This document shows, piece by piece, positions 51,304 through 59,475 of a stretch of DNA of 64,000 nucleotides; positions within the stretch are counted from its first letter, which is position 1; every line of letters begins with the position of its first letter. Source of the stretch: Candidatus Cloacimonadales bacterium (GTDB lineage: Bacteria > Cloacimonadota > Cloacimonadia > Cloacimonadales > JAFGVF01). The notes below the pieces were generated by a model. That model had not been told where the DNA came from. It saw only the letters and a list, made by a program, of their open reading frames with translations, and did no database searches. The position numbers and the translations under genes were made by a program. The stretch spans positions 1,888,001-1,952,000 of the forward strand of contig OY782781.1 in NCBI GenBank assembly GCA_963678315.1. The letters run 5' to 3'.

Positions 51304-53835
51304 ATGGCTAAAGAAGCAAAAGCAAGGATTAAAATTAATAGGTTATTAGAAGAAGCTGGTTGGCGATTCTTTGATAGTGAAGAGGGTAAAGCTAATATTG
51401 AGCTTGAGAAGGGTGTAAAAATAACAAAGCAGTATTATGACCAGATGGGAAACAATTTTGAGGGATACAAGAACGGTTTTACTGATTACACACTATTAAA
51501 TAAAAAAGGTTTTCCTTTAGTTGTTCTGGAAGCAAAACGTGAAGAAAAAGATCCTATGGATGGCAAAGAACAAGCTAGACGCTATGCTAAGAGCTTGAAT
51601 GTAAATTTTGTAATTCTTTCCAATGGTAATTTACACTATTTCTGGGACTTAAGAAAAGGTAATCCTGTTGTAATTACCTCGTTTCCTACTGAAGATTCAT
51701 TAAACTATTATTCTCGTTCAAATCCCAACCCAAAGAACCTTGTAGAAGAAATTATAACAAAAGAATATATACTAGAAACACAATATCCATTATATAAAAC
51801 AGATCCAGACTATCTTGATAAAACTAAACACAAGGATTTCTTTGAAAAACATTCAGAGTTTAGATTGCTGAGAGACTATCAAATAAATGCTTTAAAATCT
51901 GTTCAAGAAGCAGTTAAAAATGGCTCTGATAGATTCCTTTTTGAAATGGCGACAGGTACGGGGAAAACTTTAACATCAGCTGCTCTAATAAAGTTATTTT
52001 TAAAGACTGGAAATTCTTCTAGAGTTCTATTTTTGGTTGATAGGTTAGAATTAGAAAAACAAGCAGCTACTAATTTTAACAACTATCTAAAAAATGATTA
52101 TACTAGTGTAGTATATAAAGAAAATAAAGATGAATGGAATAGTGCTAGGATTGTTGTGACAACTGTTCAAAGTTTATTGCATAACGATAAGTATCAAAGA
52201 CTATTCTCTCCTACTGATTTTGATTTAATTATTTCAGATGAAGCACATAGAAGTATTAACGGAAATGCCAGAGCACTCTTTGAATACTTCTGTGGTTATA
52301 AATTGGGGTTAACAGCAACACCTAAAGATTATTTAAAGAATATTAATGCAGAAGAGCTCAGGACAAACGATTCAAGAGCTTTAGAAAAAAGATTATTATT
52401 AGATACTTATAAAACTTTTGGTTGTGAGACAGGTAATCCAACCTTTAGATATAGTCTACTTGATGGAGTGAAAGATGGCTATTTAATTAATCCTATAGTT
52501 GTTGATGCTAGAACAGATATTACTACACAACTTCTTTCAGATCAAGGCTATTCTGTAATGGTTAAAGATGAAAATGGTGAGTTGCAAGAAAAAGCTTATA
52601 CTCAAAAATCTTATGCAAAGAAATTTTTCTCTCAGGAGACAGATATAGCTTTTTGTCTAAGCTTTATAGAAAATGCTCTTAGAGACCCTATAACTAATGA
52701 AATAGGTAAATCAATAGTGTTTTGTGTTAGTCAAGACCATGCTAATAATATATCTATGATTCTAAATGAGATAATAGAAAAGAAATACCCAGGTAAATAC
52801 AATTCTGATTTCGCTGTACAAGTGACTTCTAGAATTACAGATGCTCAAACTATGACTGTAAACTTCTCAAATAAAAATCTGAATGGTAGAACAACATTCC
52901 TTGATGGTTATAAGTCTGACAAGACAAGGGTTTGTGTTACAGTGGGTATGATGACAACAGGTTATGATTGTCCAGACTTATTGAATGTTGCTTTAATGCG
53001 ACCAATCTTTTCACCTTCTGACTTTGTACAAATAAAAGGAAGAGGAACTAGGACAAATACCTTTAAGTATGAGACAAGAAGAAATGGTATAACTGAAACT
53101 ATAAAACAGAATAAGACTAATTTCAAATTGTTTGATTATTTTGCTAATTGTGAGTATTTTGAGACAAAGTTTGATTATGATCAAGTAATAAAACTACCTA
53201 AATATTCATCAACAATTAAAGTAGATAATAATGACAATAATGATGATAAGATAAGTATAGATAGTTATAATTCTATAATAGCTGACCCTATAACTGAGCT
53301 TACAGAAGAACAGATAGGTTTAGATGGAATGAAGATTGATAGAAAGCTATATGAGAAGTTTGAAGAAGAGGTAACTAACGATAAAGAGCTTATTGAGCTT
53401 CTTGAAAATGAAGACTTTTCTGCTATGGAAGATTATATCAATGAAAACATCTTCAATAAACCATCTGAGTTTTATAACTTAATTAAACTTAGAAATGCAA
53501 TCAAAGTTGATAGAAGAGTCTCACTTAGAGAAATGATACTAAAAGCCTTTGGTCTTATCGATAGGTTTAAAGGAAAACATGAAATGTTAGATAGTGAGTT
53601 TGCTAAATTTGTAAGCATATACCATCCAGATAATGAGCATGTCCATGTAGCTAGGAAATTCTTTAAAGCTTATGTTACAGATGAAGAGATAAGAACAATT
53701 ATTAAAAAGAAAGAGTTTGGTAGGTTTGCTACTAACTCAAAGATAACTATAAATGATATAAGAGAATTAAACGGTTTCAGAGAGATAATCCCTGAATATG
53801 TTAAAGATTATGTTAATATAAATCAGTTTATGTAA
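51304..53835 (+). CDS. hsdR: Type I restriction enzyme R subunit (EcoEI/EcoAI-like)
   Basis: Nuclease DY...LEAK; helicase motifs RDYQ, MATGTGKT, DEAHR, TAT, TTGYD, QIKGRGTR. Confidence 0.9.
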   Translation: MAKEAKARIKINRLLEEAGWRFFDSEEGKANIELEKGVKITKQYYDQMGNNFEGYKNGFTDYTLLNKKGFPLVVLEAKREEKDPMDGKEQARRYAKSLNVNFVILSNGNLHYFWDLRKGNPVVITSFPTEDSLNYYSRSNPNPKNLVEEIITKEYILETQYPLYKTDPDYLDKTKHKDFFEKHSEFRLLRDYQINALKSVQEAVKNGSDRFLFEMATGTGKTLTSAALIKLFLKTGNSSRVLFLVDRLELEKQAATNFNNYLKNDYTSVVYKENKDEWNSARIVVTTVQSLLHNDKYQRLFSPTDFDLIISDEAHRSINGNARALFEYFCGYKLGLTATPKDYLKNINAEELRTNDSRALEKRLLLDTYKTFGCETGNPTFRYSLLDGVKDGYLINPIVVDARTDITTQLLSDQGYSVMVKDENGELQEKAYTQKSYAKKFFSQETDIAFCLSFIENALRDPITNEIGKSIVFCVSQDHANNISMILNEIIEKKYPGKYNSDFAVQVTSRITDAQTMTVNFSNKNLNGRTTFLDGYKSDKTRVCVTVGMMTTGYDCPDLLNVALMRPIFSPSDFVQIKGRGTRTNTFKYETRRNGITETIKQNKTNFKLFDYFANCEYFETKFDYDQVIKLPKYSSTIKVDNNDNNDDKISIDSYNSIIADPITELTEEQIGLDGMKIDRKLYEKFEEEVTNDKELIELLENEDFSAMEDYINENIFNKPSEFYNLIKLRNAIKVDRRVSLREMILKAFGLIDRFKGKHEMLDSEFAKFVSIYHPDNEHVHVARKFFKAYVTDEEIRTIIKKKEFGRFATNSKITINDIRELNGFREIIPEYVKDYVNINQFM

Positions 53836-53844
53836 AATAATTAA

Positions 53845-54434
53845 GCCACAGATTAACACGGATGCACACAGATAATAAAAAAAAGAATTAATCAGTGTCT
53901 ATCAGCGTGAATCAGTGGCAAGAAAAGTAAGTAATTATTAAGCCACGGATTAACACAGATAAACTCGGATAAAAAAAGAATTAATCAGTGGTAATAAAAA
54001 GAAAGTAATATATTAGCCTCGGATTAACACGGATGCACACAGATAATAATAAAAAGAACTAATCCGTGTCTATCAGTGAAAATCTGAGGCAAGAAAAGTA
54101 AGTAATTATTAAGCCACGGATTAACACAGATAAACTCGGATAAAAAAAGAATTAATTCAGTGGTAATAAAAAGAAAGTAATATATTAGCCTCGGATTAAC
54201 ACGGATGCACACAGATAATAATAAAAAGAACTAATCCGTGTCTATCAGTGAAAATCTGAGGCAAGAAAAGTAAGTAATTATTAAGCCACGGATTAACACA
54301 GATAAACTCGGATAAAAAAAGAATTAATTCAGTGGTAATAAAAAGAAAGTAATATATTAGCCTCGGATTAACACGGATGCACACAGATAATAATAAAAAG
54401 AACTAATCCGTGTCTATCAGCGTAAATCAGTGGC
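53845..54434. repeat. Left tandem array of 7 imperfect-hairpin units (4 complete, 3 with truncated right arm); 172-bp higher-order period
   Basis: Units start at 53845, 53942, 54016, 54113, 54188, 54285, 54360. Left arm e.g. gccacagattaacacggatgcacacagat, A-rich loop, right arm e.g. atcagtgtctatcagcgtgaatcagtggc. Confidence 0.95.
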
Positions 54435-54466
54435 AAAGAAAGATAGGTTATTGAGGAGGATGATTA

Positions 54467-54847
54467 ATGTTATATGAAGGTTTATCTGATAAGATAATAA
54501 AATGTTTTTATGATACATATAACGAACTAGGTAGGGGGTTCTTAGAAAATATTTATGAAAATGCACTAAGTATAGTATTTCAAGAGAATGGTTTAATCCA
54601 TCAAAAGCAAAAAGATATTGATGTTTTTTTTCATAAAAAGAAAATAGGTTATTATAGAGCAGACATAATCGTTGAAGATAAAATTATATTGGAATTAAAG
54701 GCTGTTGCAAAGATAAAACCTGAGCATCAAGCTCAGTTAATAAATTATCTTAAAGCTACTGGAATAAAAATAGGATATATACTAAATTTTGGAGATAAAC
54801 CAGAGTTTAGAAGATTTATATTTGATAGTTCGAATGTAAATAAATAA
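54467..54847 (+). CDS. GxxExxY family protein (PD-(D/E)XK nuclease-like)
   Basis: 126 aa; GFLENIY matches GxxExxY; RADIIVEDKIILELKA matches D...ExK; AQLINYLK; strong gaggagg RBS. Confidence 0.92.
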   Translation: MLYEGLSDKIIKCFYDTYNELGRGFLENIYENALSIVFQENGLIHQKQKDIDVFFHKKKIGYYRADIIVEDKIILELKAVAKIKPEHQAQLINYLKATGIKIGYILNFGDKPEFRRFIFDSSNVNK

Positions 54848-54863
54848 ATTAAAGAGATGTTTA

Positions 54864-56144
54864 GCCACGGATAAACACGGATGAACTCAGATAAAAAAGA
54901 ATTAATCAGTGTGTATCAGCGTGAATCTGAGGCAAGAAAAGAAATTAATATTTAAGCTACGGATTAACACGGATGCACACAGATAATAAAAAAAAGAATT
55001 AATCATTGTGTATCAGCGTGAATCAGTGGCAAGAAAAGAAAGTAATAAATAAGCCACGGATTAACACAGATGAACTCGGATGAAAGGGAATTAATCAGTG
55101 TTTATCGGCGTGAATCTGAGGCAAGAATTTAAAGTAATAAATAAGCCACAGATTAACACAGATAAACTCGGATGAAAGGGAATTAATCAGTGTTTATCGG
55201 CGTGAATCTGAGGCAAGAATTTAAAGTAATAAATAAGCTACGGATTAACACGGATGAACTCAGATAAAAAGAGAATTAAATCAGTGTGTATCAGCGTGAA
55301 TCAGTGGCAGAAAATAAAGAAATTATTAAGCCACGGATTAACACGGATGTACTCGGATGAAAGGGAATTAATCAGTGTTTATCAGCGTGAATCTGAGGCA
55401 AGAATTTAAAGTAATAAATAAGCCACAGATTAACACAGATGAACTCGGATGAAAGGGAATTAATCAGTGTTTATCAGCGTGAATCTGAGGCAAGAATTTA
55501 AAGTAATAAATAAGCCACAGATTAACACGGATGAACTCAGATAAAAAGAGAATTAAATCAGTGTGTATCAGCGTGAATCTGAGGTAAGAATCTAAAGTAA
55601 TAAATAAGCTACGGAAAAACACAGATGAACTCGGATAAAAAAGAATTAATCAGTGTCTATCAGCGTGAATCTGAGGCAAGAATTTAAAGTAATAAATAAG
55701 CCACAGATTAACACAGATAAACTCGGATAAAAAGAGAATTAAATCAGTGTGTATCAGCGTGAATCTGAGGCAAGAATTTAAAGTAATAAATAAGCCACAG
55801 ATTAACACGGATGAACTCAGATAAAAAAGAATTAATCATTGTGTATCAGCGTGAATCTGAGGCAAGAATCTAAAGTAATAAATAAGCTACGGAAAAACAC
55901 AGATGAACTCGGATAAAAAAGAATTAATCAGTGTCTATCAGCGTGAATCAGTGGCAAGAAAAGAAAGTAATAAATAAGCTACGGAAAAACACAGATGAAC
56001 TCGGATAAAAAAGAATTAATCAGTGTGTATCAGCGTGAATCTGAGGCAAGAATTTAAAGTAATAAATAAGCCACAGATTAACACGGATGCACACAGATAA
56101 TAATAAAAAGAACTAATCCGTGTCTATCAGTGAAAATCAGTGGC
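54864..56144. repeat. Right tandem array of 14 imperfect-hairpin units, ~92-97 bp period
   Basis: Units start at 54864, 54956, 55053, 55145, 55237, 55330, 55422, 55514, 55608, 55700, 55794, 55886, 55978, 56070; same arms as the left array. Confidence 0.95.
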
Positions 56145-56170
56145 AAATAAATAAGTTATTAGGATGAAAA

Positions 56171-58672
56171 ATGTTAGATAAAACAACGAAAAGAAAAATA
56201 GATAATGCTAGAGATATATTGGTAGGCAAAGTACCAATACCTAAGTCACAAATAGACTTAATAACCATAACACTAATATATAAGTTTATGGATGATATGG
56301 ACAGACAAGCAGAAGAGATTGGTGGCAACGCCAGCTTTTTTGTGCAAGATTTTGAAAAGTATGCTTGGGCTAAAGTAATGGACCAATCACTTGGTGGTTA
56401 TGAAAGATTACAGCTTTTTGATGAAGGTCTTATCAAAATGAATCAAAACCCTCATATTCCTGCTTTATTCAGAGAAATATTTAAGAATGCCTTCTTACCT
56501 TTTAGAGATCCTGAAACTCTCAACATGTTTTTAGAAGAAATAAATGATTTTGATTATGGTCATTCAGAAAAGCTTGGTGATGCTTTTGAATACTTACTTT
56601 CCATTATGAGCTCACAGGGAGATGCAGGACAATTCCGAACTCCTAGGCACATTATCGAGTTTATAGTTGATGTTGTAAATCCAACTAAAACAGATAAAAT
56701 ATTAGATCCAGCTTGTGGAACAGCAGGTTTCTTAATCTCTGCCTATAAACACATAATGGAAGAGAATACCGAAGATTACTATGGAGATATGCTTAATAGT
56801 GATGAAAGAGATACACTAGCTAATAATATAGTTGGCTATGATATATCACCAGATATGGTAAGGCTTAGTTTAGTTAATATGTTTTTACATAAGTTCCCAA
56901 ACCCACAAATATTTGAATATGATACGTTAACTAATACTGAAAGATGGGAAGATAGCTTTTCTTGTATATTAGCTAACCCTCCTTTTATGTCTCCTAAAGG
57001 TGGAATAAAACCACATTCAAGGTATGCTATAAAATCTAAGCGTTCAGAAGTACTTTTTGTTGATTATATGATGGAACACCTAACCGAAGATGGTAAAGCT
57101 GGAATAATTGTTCCCGAAGGTATCATCTTCCAAAGTCAAAAAGCTCATAAAGAACTACGTAAGAAGATGGTTGAACAAAACTACCTTTGGGCTGTTGTCT
57201 CCTTACCAAGTGGGATATTCCAACCCTACTCAGGTGTAAAAACCTCAATCCTACTATTTGATAAAGCAAGAGCAAAAGCAAGTGATAAAATAGTTTTTGC
57301 TAAAGTTCAAAATGATGGCTATTCATTAGGATCACAACGAACACCTATCAATAAAAATGATCTACCAAAATTAATTGATGCTCTTAATTATTACAAAAAT
57401 AAAAATGAAATCTGTGAAAATCAGTGTGAATCTGTGGCAAAAGAAGATTGTATTAGCCACGGATTAACTCAGATTGAAACGGATAAAGAGAATATATTTA
57501 AAAATATTTCAATCGTAGAAAAATCAAAACTTGCAGAAAATGATTATAATTTGAGTGGAGATAGGTATATTGTAGAGAGTATAATGAATCATTCAAACTG
57601 GGAAATGGTGTACTTAGGTGATGTATGTGAATTGGTGAGAGGTGTTACATACACTAAAAGTGATGAAGTAGATGAAAATGGGCATATGATATTGAGAGCA
57701 AATAATATATCACTAGAAAGTAATACACTTAACCTTGATGACATTAAAATGGTTAAACTGGACAAGCAACCTAAACTTCATAAGAAACTTAGTAAAGATG
57801 ATATCCTAATATGCTTAGCAAGTGGTAGTAAAAAACATATTGGTAAGGTTGCCTATAGCGATTCTGAAACTGAATATTATTTTGGTGGATTTATGGGAGT
57901 TGTTAGGTGTACTACTTTCAAGAACATTCCTAAATTTATATATCATTTACTTAAACACAGTAAGTTTAATGAATTCATCAATTCACAAATATCAGGTGCA
58001 AACATTCATAATTTGAATAGTAAAATATTATATAAGTACCTAGTTCCTCTCCCACCCCTCGAAGTCCAAGAAGAGATTGTCGCAGAAATCGAAGGATATC
58101 AAAAGATAATTGATGGAGCAAAACAAGTTGTAGACAACTACAAACCTCATATTGATATTGATCCTGAGTGGGATGTTGTGGAATTCGAGGATGTATGCAC
58201 ACTTGAATATGGAAAAAGTTTACCGAAAAGCAAAAGAATTGAAGGTGAATTTCCTGTAGTAGGCTCTAATGGTATTACTGGATATCATAATGAGTTCCTA
58301 CTTGAAGCTCCTTCTATTATTGTTGGTAGAAAAGGATCTGCTGGTGAAGTCGTATTTATTAGCAAGCCATGCTATCCGATTGATACAACCTACTATGTAG
58401 AATTAAAATCAGAAGATACAAAATTGAAGTATGTTTACTACATTTTAAAATCTATGAATCTTGTAAAACTAAAAGGTGGAGCTGGTATACCAGGATTGAA
58501 TCGTAATGATGTATATAGAACAATAAAAATACCAAAACCTTCATTAGAAATTCAGCAGCGTATAGTTTCAAAAATCGACGAAGAGCAAAAGTATGTAGAT
58601 GGTTGTAAAAAACTAATTGAAATTTATGAGCAAAAGATAAAAGAAAGAATAGACAAGGTTTGGGAGGGGTAA
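56171..58672 (+). CDS. hsdM: Type I R-M fused methyltransferase-specificity protein (HsdM-HsdS), N6-adenine MTase
   Basis: GQFRTP, DPACGTAGFL (motif I), ANPPF (motif IV); C-terminal two TRDs with conserved PLPPLEVQEEIV and PKPSLEIQQRIV regions in a single ORF. Confidence 0.9.
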   Translation: MLDKTTKRKIDNARDILVGKVPIPKSQIDLITITLIYKFMDDMDRQAEEIGGNASFFVQDFEKYAWAKVMDQSLGGYERLQLFDEGLIKMNQNPHIPALFREIFKNAFLPFRDPETLNMFLEEINDFDYGHSEKLGDAFEYLLSIMSSQGDAGQFRTPRHIIEFIVDVVNPTKTDKILDPACGTAGFLISAYKHIMEENTEDYYGDMLNSDERDTLANNIVGYDISPDMVRLSLVNMFLHKFPNPQIFEYDTLTNTERWEDSFSCILANPPFMSPKGGIKPHSRYAIKSKRSEVLFVDYMMEHLTEDGKAGIIVPEGIIFQSQKAHKELRKKMVEQNYLWAVVSLPSGIFQPYSGVKTSILLFDKARAKASDKIVFAKVQNDGYSLGSQRTPINKNDLPKLIDALNYYKNKNEICENQCESVAKEDCISHGLTQIETDKENIFKNISIVEKSKLAENDYNLSGDRYIVESIMNHSNWEMVYLGDVCELVRGVTYTKSDEVDENGHMILRANNISLESNTLNLDDIKMVKLDKQPKLHKKLSKDDILICLASGSKKHIGKVAYSDSETEYYFGGFMGVVRCTTFKNIPKFIYHLLKHSKFNEFINSQISGANIHNLNSKILYKYLVPLPPLEVQEEIVAEIEGYQKIIDGAKQVVDNYKPHIDIDPEWDVVEFEDVCTLEYGKSLPKSKRIEGEFPVVGSNGITGYHNEFLLEAPSIIVGRKGSAGEVVFISKPCYPIDTTYYVELKSEDTKLKYVYYILKSMNLVKLKGGAGIPGLNRNDVYRTIKIPKPSLEIQQRIVSKIDEEQKYVDGCKKLIEIYEQKIKERIDKVWEG
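57410..57484. repeat. In-frame copy of the array hairpin inside hsdM-S
   Basis: atctgtgaaaatcagtgtgaatctgtggc-17nt-gccacggattaactcagattgaaacggat, translated as ICENQCESVAKEDCISHGLTQIETD. Confidence 0.85.
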
Positions 58673-58674
58673 GT

Positions 58675-59475
58675 ATGGAAGAATATATATATAATTTATC
58701 TCGTTTTTATCCAATTACTATTAGAGATCAAAGTCATATTGATTACATAGAAGGATTAAAAACGTCTTTTTTAGATAATATAGAAACAAGTAATTATCAG
58801 TTTGCTTTTTTTTCTTATCATTTGTTATTTATGGGATTTATATATTATTCTATAGCAACTTATAGAGAATTATATCAAGAGCATTTTGAACAAAGTTTAT
58901 ATTTATTAACAGGCAACAAAGATAGATTGAAACTATTTAATCAAACAGGTAAAATTTTTGATTTTTCTCATGAAAATGAGAGCACTATTATTAGATTATT
59001 ATCAGTATTTAACTGTGATAAAATGGTAATTAACGATTTGAAGAGACTTATAAAAAAGAGAAATGATATAGGACACTGTAATGCAAAAAATGAGTTCGTA
59101 GACCTTAAAAATCTTGAAAAAGAGTTAGACAAATATCTTGTAATAGCAGATCATATACATAAGTCTTTGGTGGATATTAAAAGCTGCAAATTCATTGATT
59201 ATATTAAAGATACTTTTGTAGACAAATTTTATTTGGATTATGAACTAGACGATTTTGAAGAGGATGATTATTTAAGTGAAAATGATGTTATTACTGAACT
59301 AAATGAGAATTATATTCCTGATAATTACATTTCTGAAAATGATATAGAAGAATTGAAGAGAATTAATTTATCAGATTTTGAAAAAATTGAAGAACATAAA
59401 AATTTAACTAAAATATATAGCTTTATGATTGAGAAATGGCAAGAAGAATACAATTTGGAGGAAAGAGAAAATTAA
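58675..59475 (+). CDS. Hypothetical protein with RxxxxH (HEPN-like) motif, coupled to hsdM-S
   Basis: ATG at 58675, 2 nt after the hsdM-S stop, with ggagggg RBS; helical, KRNDIGH; very AT-rich. Confidence 0.55.
   Translation: MEEYIYNLSRFYPITIRDQSHIDYIEGLKTSFLDNIETSNYQFAFFSYHLLFMGFIYYSIATYRELYQEHFEQSLYLLTGNKDRLKLFNQTGKIFDFSHENESTIIRLLSVFNCDKMVINDLKRLIKKRNDIGHCNAKNEFVDLKNLEKELDKYLVIADHIHKSLVDIKSCKFIDYIKDTFVDKFYLDYELDDFEEDDYLSENDVITELNENYIPDNYISENDIEELKRINLSDFEKIEEHKNLTKIYSFMIEKWQEEYNLEEREN

Follow-up and report, generated by a model that had tools for sequence, protein, structure and literature searches.

A GxxExxY nuclease gene set between hairpin arrays in a Candidatus Cloacimonadales genome looks like an undescribed selfish nuclease-and-repeat system

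We analysed a 64,000-nt stretch of the genome of a Candidatus Cloacimonadales bacterium (assembly GCA_963678315.1, contig OY782781.1, positions 1,888,001 to 1,952,000 of the forward strand; hereafter the window, in whose own numbering positions are given), in which a gene for a 126-aa GxxExxY protein lies between two arrays of imperfect hairpins. This block, which separates the type I restriction gene hsdR from a fused hsdM-S gene, looks like an undescribed selfish nuclease-and-repeat system and not like a part of the adjacent restriction system. With a probability of roughly 0.55, we read it as a locally amplified copy of a widespread cassette of nuclease gene and repeats, the nuclease of which would act on the seven-base words that make up the hairpin arms. 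No published account of a link between GxxExxY genes and repeats was found in the literature searched, most subscription journals and supplements lying outside it. The block is composed of the following features.

53844..54434, + strand: upstream hairpin array of seven units (sequence, Tandem Repeats Finder, unit parse, alignment)
54467..54847, + strand: GxxExxY gene, 126 aa, PD-(D/E)XK nuclease of RecB/Cas4-like kind (list of open reading frames (ORFs), PF13366, TIGR04256)
54863..56144, + strand: downstream hairpin array of 14 units (sequence, Tandem Repeats Finder, unit parse, alignment)

Together, the 21 repeat units, parsed from the sequence and each beginning with AGC(C/T), and the single ORF occupy positions 53844–56144. 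In a full unit, two arms, each about 29 nt long, lie to the left and right of an A-rich loop of 12–17 nt, and an A-rich linker (about 21 nt) completes the unit, in keeping with the sizes given in a first-pass annotation made from the letters of the window. The same annotation had counted seven upstream and 14 downstream copies, all as hairpins; the count held, whereas upstream units 2, 4 and 6 proved to be truncated, with the right arm cut to one heptamer (two of the three words lost) and a length of 74–75 bp, so that the total is 18 full hairpins and three stumps. The left arm consists of AGCC followed by three CACRGAT or CTCRGAT words at a spacing of 10 bp, and the right arm is its imperfect inverse, terminating in GGC. 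A search for inverted pairs with a 9-base exact seed found none, because mismatches interrupt the arms. The unit ends (AGCC...GGC) differ from what we take to be the core of integron attC sites. A CRISPR array was considered and rejected, since loops and linkers are near-identical between units and there are no unique spacers.

Tandem Repeats Finder resolved the upstream array into 3.5 copies of a 172-bp higher-order unit (95% matches) and the downstream array into 13.3 copies of a 92-bp unit (87% matches) or, alternatively, 4.4 copies of a 278-bp unit (91% matches), with a 186-bp period detected as well. The units are of two types, A (u01, u03, u05, u07, d02 and d14) and B (all others). Upstream, four full A-type units alternate with three truncated B-type units; downstream, there are 12 B-type units, d02 and d14 being A-type, and d14, the unit nearest to hsdM-S, shares 95% identity with u03, u05 and u07 of the upstream array. 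Both arrays are thus mosaics of the same two unit types, which indicates growth by tandem duplication, in blocks of one to three units, and not by 21 separate insertions. The array in the window was the largest among the 81 loci examined.

The GxxExxY gene has a GGAGG 8 nt upstream of its ATG, and its product is a clear member of its family, matching PF13366 (PDDEXK_3; its sole Pfam match) with E 8e-40 and 136.2 bits against a cut-off of 22, and TIGR04256 (GxxExxY) with 128 bits against a cut-off of 35. An alignment of 78 homologues showed D66, K78, Q90 and Y94 to be invariant and E76 nearly invariant, in agreement with the intact motif reported in the first-pass annotation; we take these residues to represent the D, ExK and QxxxY pattern of RecB/Cas4-type nucleases. 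The AlphaFold2 model of the protein (mean predicted local distance difference test score, pLDDT, 93.5) was closest in Foldseek to Cas4 SSO0001 (4ic1, E 1e-4), the LHK-Exo alkaline exonuclease and lambda exonuclease, followed by a structural-genomics protein and Hjc, with all TM-scores at or below 0.59. Judged from its catalytic residues and predicted fold, the protein has a PD-(D/E)XK core. A sequence search of the PDB with it returned nothing relevant, and homodimer prediction gave no answer (score 0.00 against a mark of 0.42). In the part of the 2012 survey of PD-(D/E)XK proteins drawn on here (PMC3424549), the function of PF13366 is listed as unknown.

The association of this gene with inverted repeats extends across phyla. 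Eighty loci with homologues (46–58% identity to the window protein) were fetched with a profile of four paralogues; they come from Bacteroidota, Ignavibacteriota, Chlorobiota, Chloroflexota, Acidobacteriota, Desulfobacterota and Planctomycetota, and from a candidate phyla radiation (CPR) bacterium, a Heliomicrobium metagenome-assembled genome (MAG) and a Methanoperedenaceae archaeon. In the 75 loci with both flanks of at least 200 bp (five were dropped for short flanks), the 250 bp upstream of the gene were aligned to the reverse complement of the 250 bp downstream. The resulting score had a median of 33, compared with 18 in 141 windows shifted by 800 bp, none of which scored above 29. This control maximum was exceeded in 46 of the 75 loci, in favour of the enrichment of inverted repeats for which the first-pass annotation had proposed to test. 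Flanks paired between different loci gave a median of 21 and a 99th percentile of 46, a high tail that arises because the loci share the word. By eye, nearly all arms of the homologues consist of GAAC and then CRCNGAT words spaced 9–10 bp; a strict arm detector overlooked many degenerate arms in the 80 loci, and its counts are unfit as frequencies. Cassettes with the word CRCNRAG came from a further sample, 29 loci of the order to which the window belongs. The arrangement of array, gene and array recurs in a Melioribacteraceae MAG (L090), where the GxxExxY gene is preceded by two hairpin units of 113 bp and followed by 6.9 units of 114 bp. One arm of that locus (L090:1970-2117) has expanded, with 7.8 copies of a two-word unit of 19 bp, from which it follows that the arms themselves can grow by slippage.

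The type of word follows the protein tree. Of 101 proteins in the tree, 87 were labelled by the commonest oriented word of their locus and 14 were left unlabelled; the three word types GAT, RAG and AAT require two changes, the minimum possible, whereas shuffled labels required 16.8 on average and 14 at the least (0 of 200 shuffles as low as observed). All 17 RAG cassettes form one clade, with a support of 97 in the Shimodaira–Hasegawa-like approximate likelihood ratio test (SH-aLRT), and the order-plus-own subset (32 rows) likewise needed two changes, against 11.0 after shuffling (0 of 500 shuffles as low). As the genome from which the window derives contains all three word types, arms and gene evidently travel together even within a single genome. 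Repeat sequence and protein phylogeny are therefore linked in the manner that the first-pass annotation had proposed to look for.

Within this genome the exact 92-nt unit is restricted to the block, as found by blastn of one unit, and the wider repeat family becomes visible only with word patterns. Arms of at least two phased words number 152, compared with 12 in the reversed genome, and are thus well beyond chance; they are spread over 48 loci and comprise 79 arms with the word GAT, 43 with AAT, 28 with AAA and two with RAG. The gene, initially described as lone, is not so in the genome, which has four further GxxExxY copies, one of them broken. All five have phased-word inverted flanks; the other four sit in a polysaccharide locus, where one paralogue is enclosed by three nested arm pairs and another lies between complete hairpins, as the window gene does. 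Among 121 genomes of the order, a PF13366 match is present in 86, with up to 16 matches per genome, and triple-heptamer arms total 5111, compared with 464 for the pattern read backwards. The number of arms tracks the number of gene copies (Spearman 0.62), with a median of 28 arms in genomes with the gene and five in those without it, in line with the original proposal that gene and repeats belong together.

What is conserved in the arms points to a motif. In 67 aligned word pairs from 46 loci, word positions 1, 3, 5, 6 and 7 are fixed, and position 2 is A or G, the arms agreeing in 0.87 of the pairs. Position 4 agrees between arms in only 0.55 of the pairs, with one C in 134 letters. For the 18 full units of the window, 75.9% of the cells are paired, and at three pair positions none of the 17 distinct rows shows pairing. 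No covariation was found in these 18 units (467 of 500 shuffles pair as well as observed), a comparison whose power is low because the units are recent duplicates. A position 4 that is free and mostly unpaired, together with the lack of covariation, indicates conservation of a motif and not of a stem; what is conserved is a word that recurs on the same face of the helix within inverted arrays, which fits recognition by a protein better than a selected RNA stem.

The mechanism that we propose may be outlined as follows. The basic cassette is a GxxExxY gene, coding for a minimal RecB/Cas4-like PD-(D/E)XK nuclease, enclosed by two inverted arms, each with a short tag and then two to four CRCNGAT words spaced 9–10 bp; gene-less copies consist of two arms around a short loop. 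In the window such gene-less hairpins have multiplied into the arrays of seven and 14 that flank the gene, and the whole block has recently entered a variable slot between hsdR and hsdM-S. The nuclease presumably recognises the heptamer words as a motif, and not a perfect stem, and may nick or cut at them; cutting could then cause arms and cassette to be copied or inserted, much as RAYT acts on REPINs or Ssn on NTS. In a broader version, which we put forward tentatively and hold to be rather more doubtful than the reading of the block itself, hairpin cassettes with heptamer arms would be mobilised or maintained by GxxExxY proteins, which would constitute a new class of nucleases specific for a word. 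This would be a PD-(D/E)XK counterpart of REPIN-RAYT; horizontal transfer would have carried it into many bacterial phyla and into one archaeon or more, and it could give rise to arrays with tens of units and even to repeats inserted in frame into protein genes.

The likeness to repetitive extragenic palindromic (REP) sequences and their RAYT enzymes, suggested in the first-pass annotation, proved sound as an analogy and did not extend to membership. According to the part of the work of Bertels and Rainey used here (2011, PMC3116915), REPIN clusters adjoin their RAYT genes. In both systems the enzyme gene is present in one or few copies and has on its flanks clusters of the hairpin-forming repeat that belongs to it; the flavour of the repeat matches the enzyme, most copies are gene-less and intergenic, and tandem clusters occur. 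Unlike RAYT, which is an HUH Y1 (IS200/IS605-like) transposase, the enzyme described here is a 126-aa PD-(D/E)XK nuclease; the arms are built of phased heptamer words where REPINs have a REP palindrome, the inverted repeat usually encloses the gene, and copy numbers are in the tens, compared with hundreds for REPINs. The largest REPIN cluster of strain SBW25 in the same source has four REPINs, against seven and 14 units here. A further parallel is Ssn, a GIY-YIG nuclease that cuts single-stranded DNA at NTS (Chenal et al. 2025, PMC11893778, likewise used in part). As in the Ssn/NTS/SRM case, a small stand-alone nuclease is tied to a short repeat scattered over the genome, and the link comes from co-occurrence of gene and repeat. 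GxxExxY proteins, for which cutting at the words is our supposition, have no GIY-YIG domain, and NTS, as described in that source, is not a phased-heptamer inverted repeat enclosing the gene. Because its enzyme fold differs, the block belongs to neither REPIN-RAYT nor NTS-Ssn.

Several observations weigh against our reading of the block. Only four of 17 multi-arm loci in the genome are near a GxxExxY gene, most arms being far from any. Among the genomes of the order, eight of the 35 without a PF13366 match hold 20–121 arms and five of the 86 with the gene hold three or fewer; the control pattern also correlates with gene copies (0.41), and p-values overstate the relationship because 121 related genomes are not independent. 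The link between word and clade amounts to essentially one split, which shows co-inheritance and does not prove co-evolution. The units in the window carry the tag AGCC, like the resident gene-less arms, and not the GAAC of the protein's nearest relatives. The only gene of the genome for a PF05635 four-helix-bundle/23S intervening sequence (IVS) protein (L134, G000:C1:995100-995690) has the same layout, with phased TTGATAA-type words upstream and their inverse downstream. Finally, no target duplication or excision junction was seen.

Some of these points favour the main rival explanation, in which the hairpins are independent intergenic repeats of the type of REP sequences or bacterial interspersed mosaic elements (BIMEs). 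They would be either selfish DNA moved by the host or another factor or stems that stabilise or insulate transcripts, and GxxExxY would be one of several cargos with an unrelated job. Genomes with arms and without the gene are its best argument, to which the PF05635 gene and the predominance of gene-less arms add. Acido-Lenti-1 RNA modules and a group II intron are likewise found next to arms, and 99 of the 110 Pfam-annotated neighbours of the 80 homologues are co-oriented with the GxxExxY gene, which means that the cassettes ride on operon transcripts. We nevertheless consider this explanation unlikely, given that the word is inherited with the protein clade even inside one genome and that arms with the same word accompany 46 of 75 homologues from many phyla. 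The systematically unpaired positions and the lack of covariation, for their part, speak against selection for a stem.

Four genomes of the order without a PF13366 match (G037, G107, G087 and G017) hold 75–121 triple-heptamer arms and represent natural cases of gene loss; two of these come from a genus in which the remaining members have 3–10 gene copies.

The surroundings of the block agree with the initial description, in which it splits hsdR from hsdM-S.

51304..53835, + strand: hsdR, type I restriction subunit R, upstream border (ORF; Pfam ResIII, HSDR_N, Helicase_C)
56171..58672, + strand: fused hsdM-S, downstream border (N6_Mtase plus two Methylase_S stretches)
57410..57484, + strand: extra arm pair inside hsdM-S (right arm, 16-nt linker, left arm, GCC tags inward)

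The hsdR product scores under the cut-off of the NCBIfam model for EcoAI-type R subunits. In the relative G007, whose hsdR and hsdM-S ends share 94% and 93% nucleotide identity with the window, the slot between them holds only a tightly packed 154-aa ORF (L100:1571-2035), with a weak GIY-YIG match (20.4 bits, under the cut-off of 21.4), and no arms. The slot of G020 holds a Fic/DOC gene (L101:1937-3010), and match coordinates suggest that in G014 and G019 it is empty or nearly so. Sequencing runs filed under a second organism label, in another study, have contigs on which the end of hsdR, the gene attached to a repeat unit, and the beginning of hsdM are present; counting of differing letters puts their identity to the window at roughly 97–99%. 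Slot contents and second-label contigs together indicate that the hsdR/hsdM junction is a variable slot in which the block was recently gained, and that it is not an artefact of one assembly. The extra arm pair at 57410–57484 is in frame and stop-free, lies at the M-to-S linker of hsdM-S and is 73% like the array's stretch of right arm, linker and left arm; the orthologue in G007 (83% protein identity) is without 69 nt at this site.

The position of the block between hsdR and hsdM-S could be taken to mean that the type I restriction system makes use of gene and arrays, be it as a second-line nuclease, as a regulator of the ratio of hsdR to hsdM-S expression or as decoy sites. The contents of the same slot in G020 and G007 would suit this idea, for Fic and GIY-YIG-like genes are among those known to be embedded in type I loci. 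We regard it as improbable. A Pfam scan of 150 of the 151 neighbour ORFs around the 80 homologues gave 110 with a match, and these belong to varied housekeeping functions (polysaccharide synthesis, efflux pumps, ABC transporters, tRNA synthetases, pyrimidine synthesis); no clear restriction-modification gene was present among the 110, the sole methylase-like neighbour ORF, at L020, falling under Pfam cut-offs. The homologues thus show no habitual linkage to hsd genes, as would mark an accessory gene of type I systems. The genome's other four copies lie in the polysaccharide locus mentioned above, and PADLOC gave only two weak matches, to Cas4 (E 0.002) and PDC-M36A (E 0.0026). The GxxExxY family is thus found in operons of any function, we see no specific tie of the block to restriction, and the role in a defence operon that the first-pass annotation had considered is not borne out.

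That the arrays are transcribed and processed to yield structured RNAs, about 90 nt long and functional as RNA, is a second alternative raised at the outset; it would draw on the good folding of single units (−22 to −30 kcal/mol, z −4 to −6 against shuffles) on both strands, as expected of any inverted repeat. Read-through from hsdR would be possible as well, since both terminator-like sites detected lie outside the arrays and none within them; a promoter scan gave 16 sites, with 13.7 expected. This alternative is highly improbable in view of the absence of covariation and the three stem positions that never pair. An Rfam search of positions 53000–57000 at E up to 1 gave three chance microRNA-like matches and none with E below 0.1, no rRNA match was found in the same interval, and the linkers, being near-identical, are not spacers.

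That the arrays are an assembly artefact is scarcely credible: short-read contigs do end inside the arrays and cannot be used to check the number of units, but the genome was assembled as one 2.99-Mb contig, the second-label contigs contain both borders and the gene with a unit, and L090 has a similar array.

Other repeat systems resemble the block in single respects. BIME clusters of enterobacteria are likewise tandem arrays of hairpin repeats in operons, between co-oriented genes; unlike the arrays in the window, they alternate REP orientations, have defined linker types and contain no embedded enzyme gene. Rickettsia palindromic elements are in-frame repeat insertions in protein genes, as is the arm pair in hsdM-S; they are of a different sequence family from the arms described here, and we know of no nuclease associated with them. 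Another comparable case is the 23S rRNA IVS of Leptospira with its S23p-type ORF. In Coxiella, in the part of the source used here (PMC4990558), the 23S IVS similarly has a small ORF enclosed by a long inverted repeat, is tolerated within a transcription unit and is horizontally transferred. The phased-word arms of this genome's PF05635 gene add to the resemblance. Unlike an IVS, the block lies between hsdR and hsdM-S and not in an rRNA helix, its ORF belongs to PF13366 and not to PF05635, and the gene is placed between complete hairpins and not inside one. The TAACTGA heptamer repeats of Beggiatoaceae and cyanobacteria (PMC4679880) are also intergenic arrays of a seven-base word common to distant phyla. 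They differ from the arms in being contiguous 7-bp direct repeats, with neither inversion nor helical-turn spacing, and the passages of that source covered here contain no link to GxxExxY.

PF13366 is a very large family, for which a fixed link to a phased DNA word provides a testable hypothesis as to the cutting target. If our reading is right, the cassettes would form a new repeat-nuclease system beside REPIN-RAYT and NTS-Ssn and a possible source of compact sequence-specific nucleases, and would explain a common class of intergenic repeats that breaks short-read assemblies and yields spurious small ORFs. The window offers the largest array seen, a gain datable against a close relative and an in-frame copy within a gene.

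A few minor observations were made on the surroundings of the arms and of the hsd genes. A 271-aa ORF at 58660–59475, overlapping the end of hsdM-S, has no Pfam match and a weak PADLOC match to Csx1 (E 2e-4). The genome contains a second tandem array (L017, G000:C1:2076000-2077450) with at least five copies of a 260-bp composite, made up of two heptamer arms (ATCYGTG and TTTCGTG types) and a module of three GC-rich hairpins; the latter module recurs at 373k, 1119k, 1855k and 2623k. Next to heptamer arms, and ahead of cassette genes, a short conserved element made up of ACTGGGAACGC and then a GC-rich CCGGC hairpin is found repeatedly; Rfam gave no match to it in the loci that were fetched, the copy at 995150 lying outside those loci. 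Six matches to the Acido-Lenti-1 RNA (RF01687) exceeded the gathering score, all of them in loci fetched for heptamer arms.

G000:C1, about 743000, 744790, 995150 and 2934230: copies of the ACTGGGAACGC element
L008:1475-1521, L011:1458-1504, L014:1569-1615 and 2844-2890, L019:1415-1460 and 1827-1873: matches to RF01687

In L012, a group II intron, with a match to domains D1-D4 and a reverse transcriptase ORF (1186-1322 and 1640-2419), directly follows a three-word heptamer arm.

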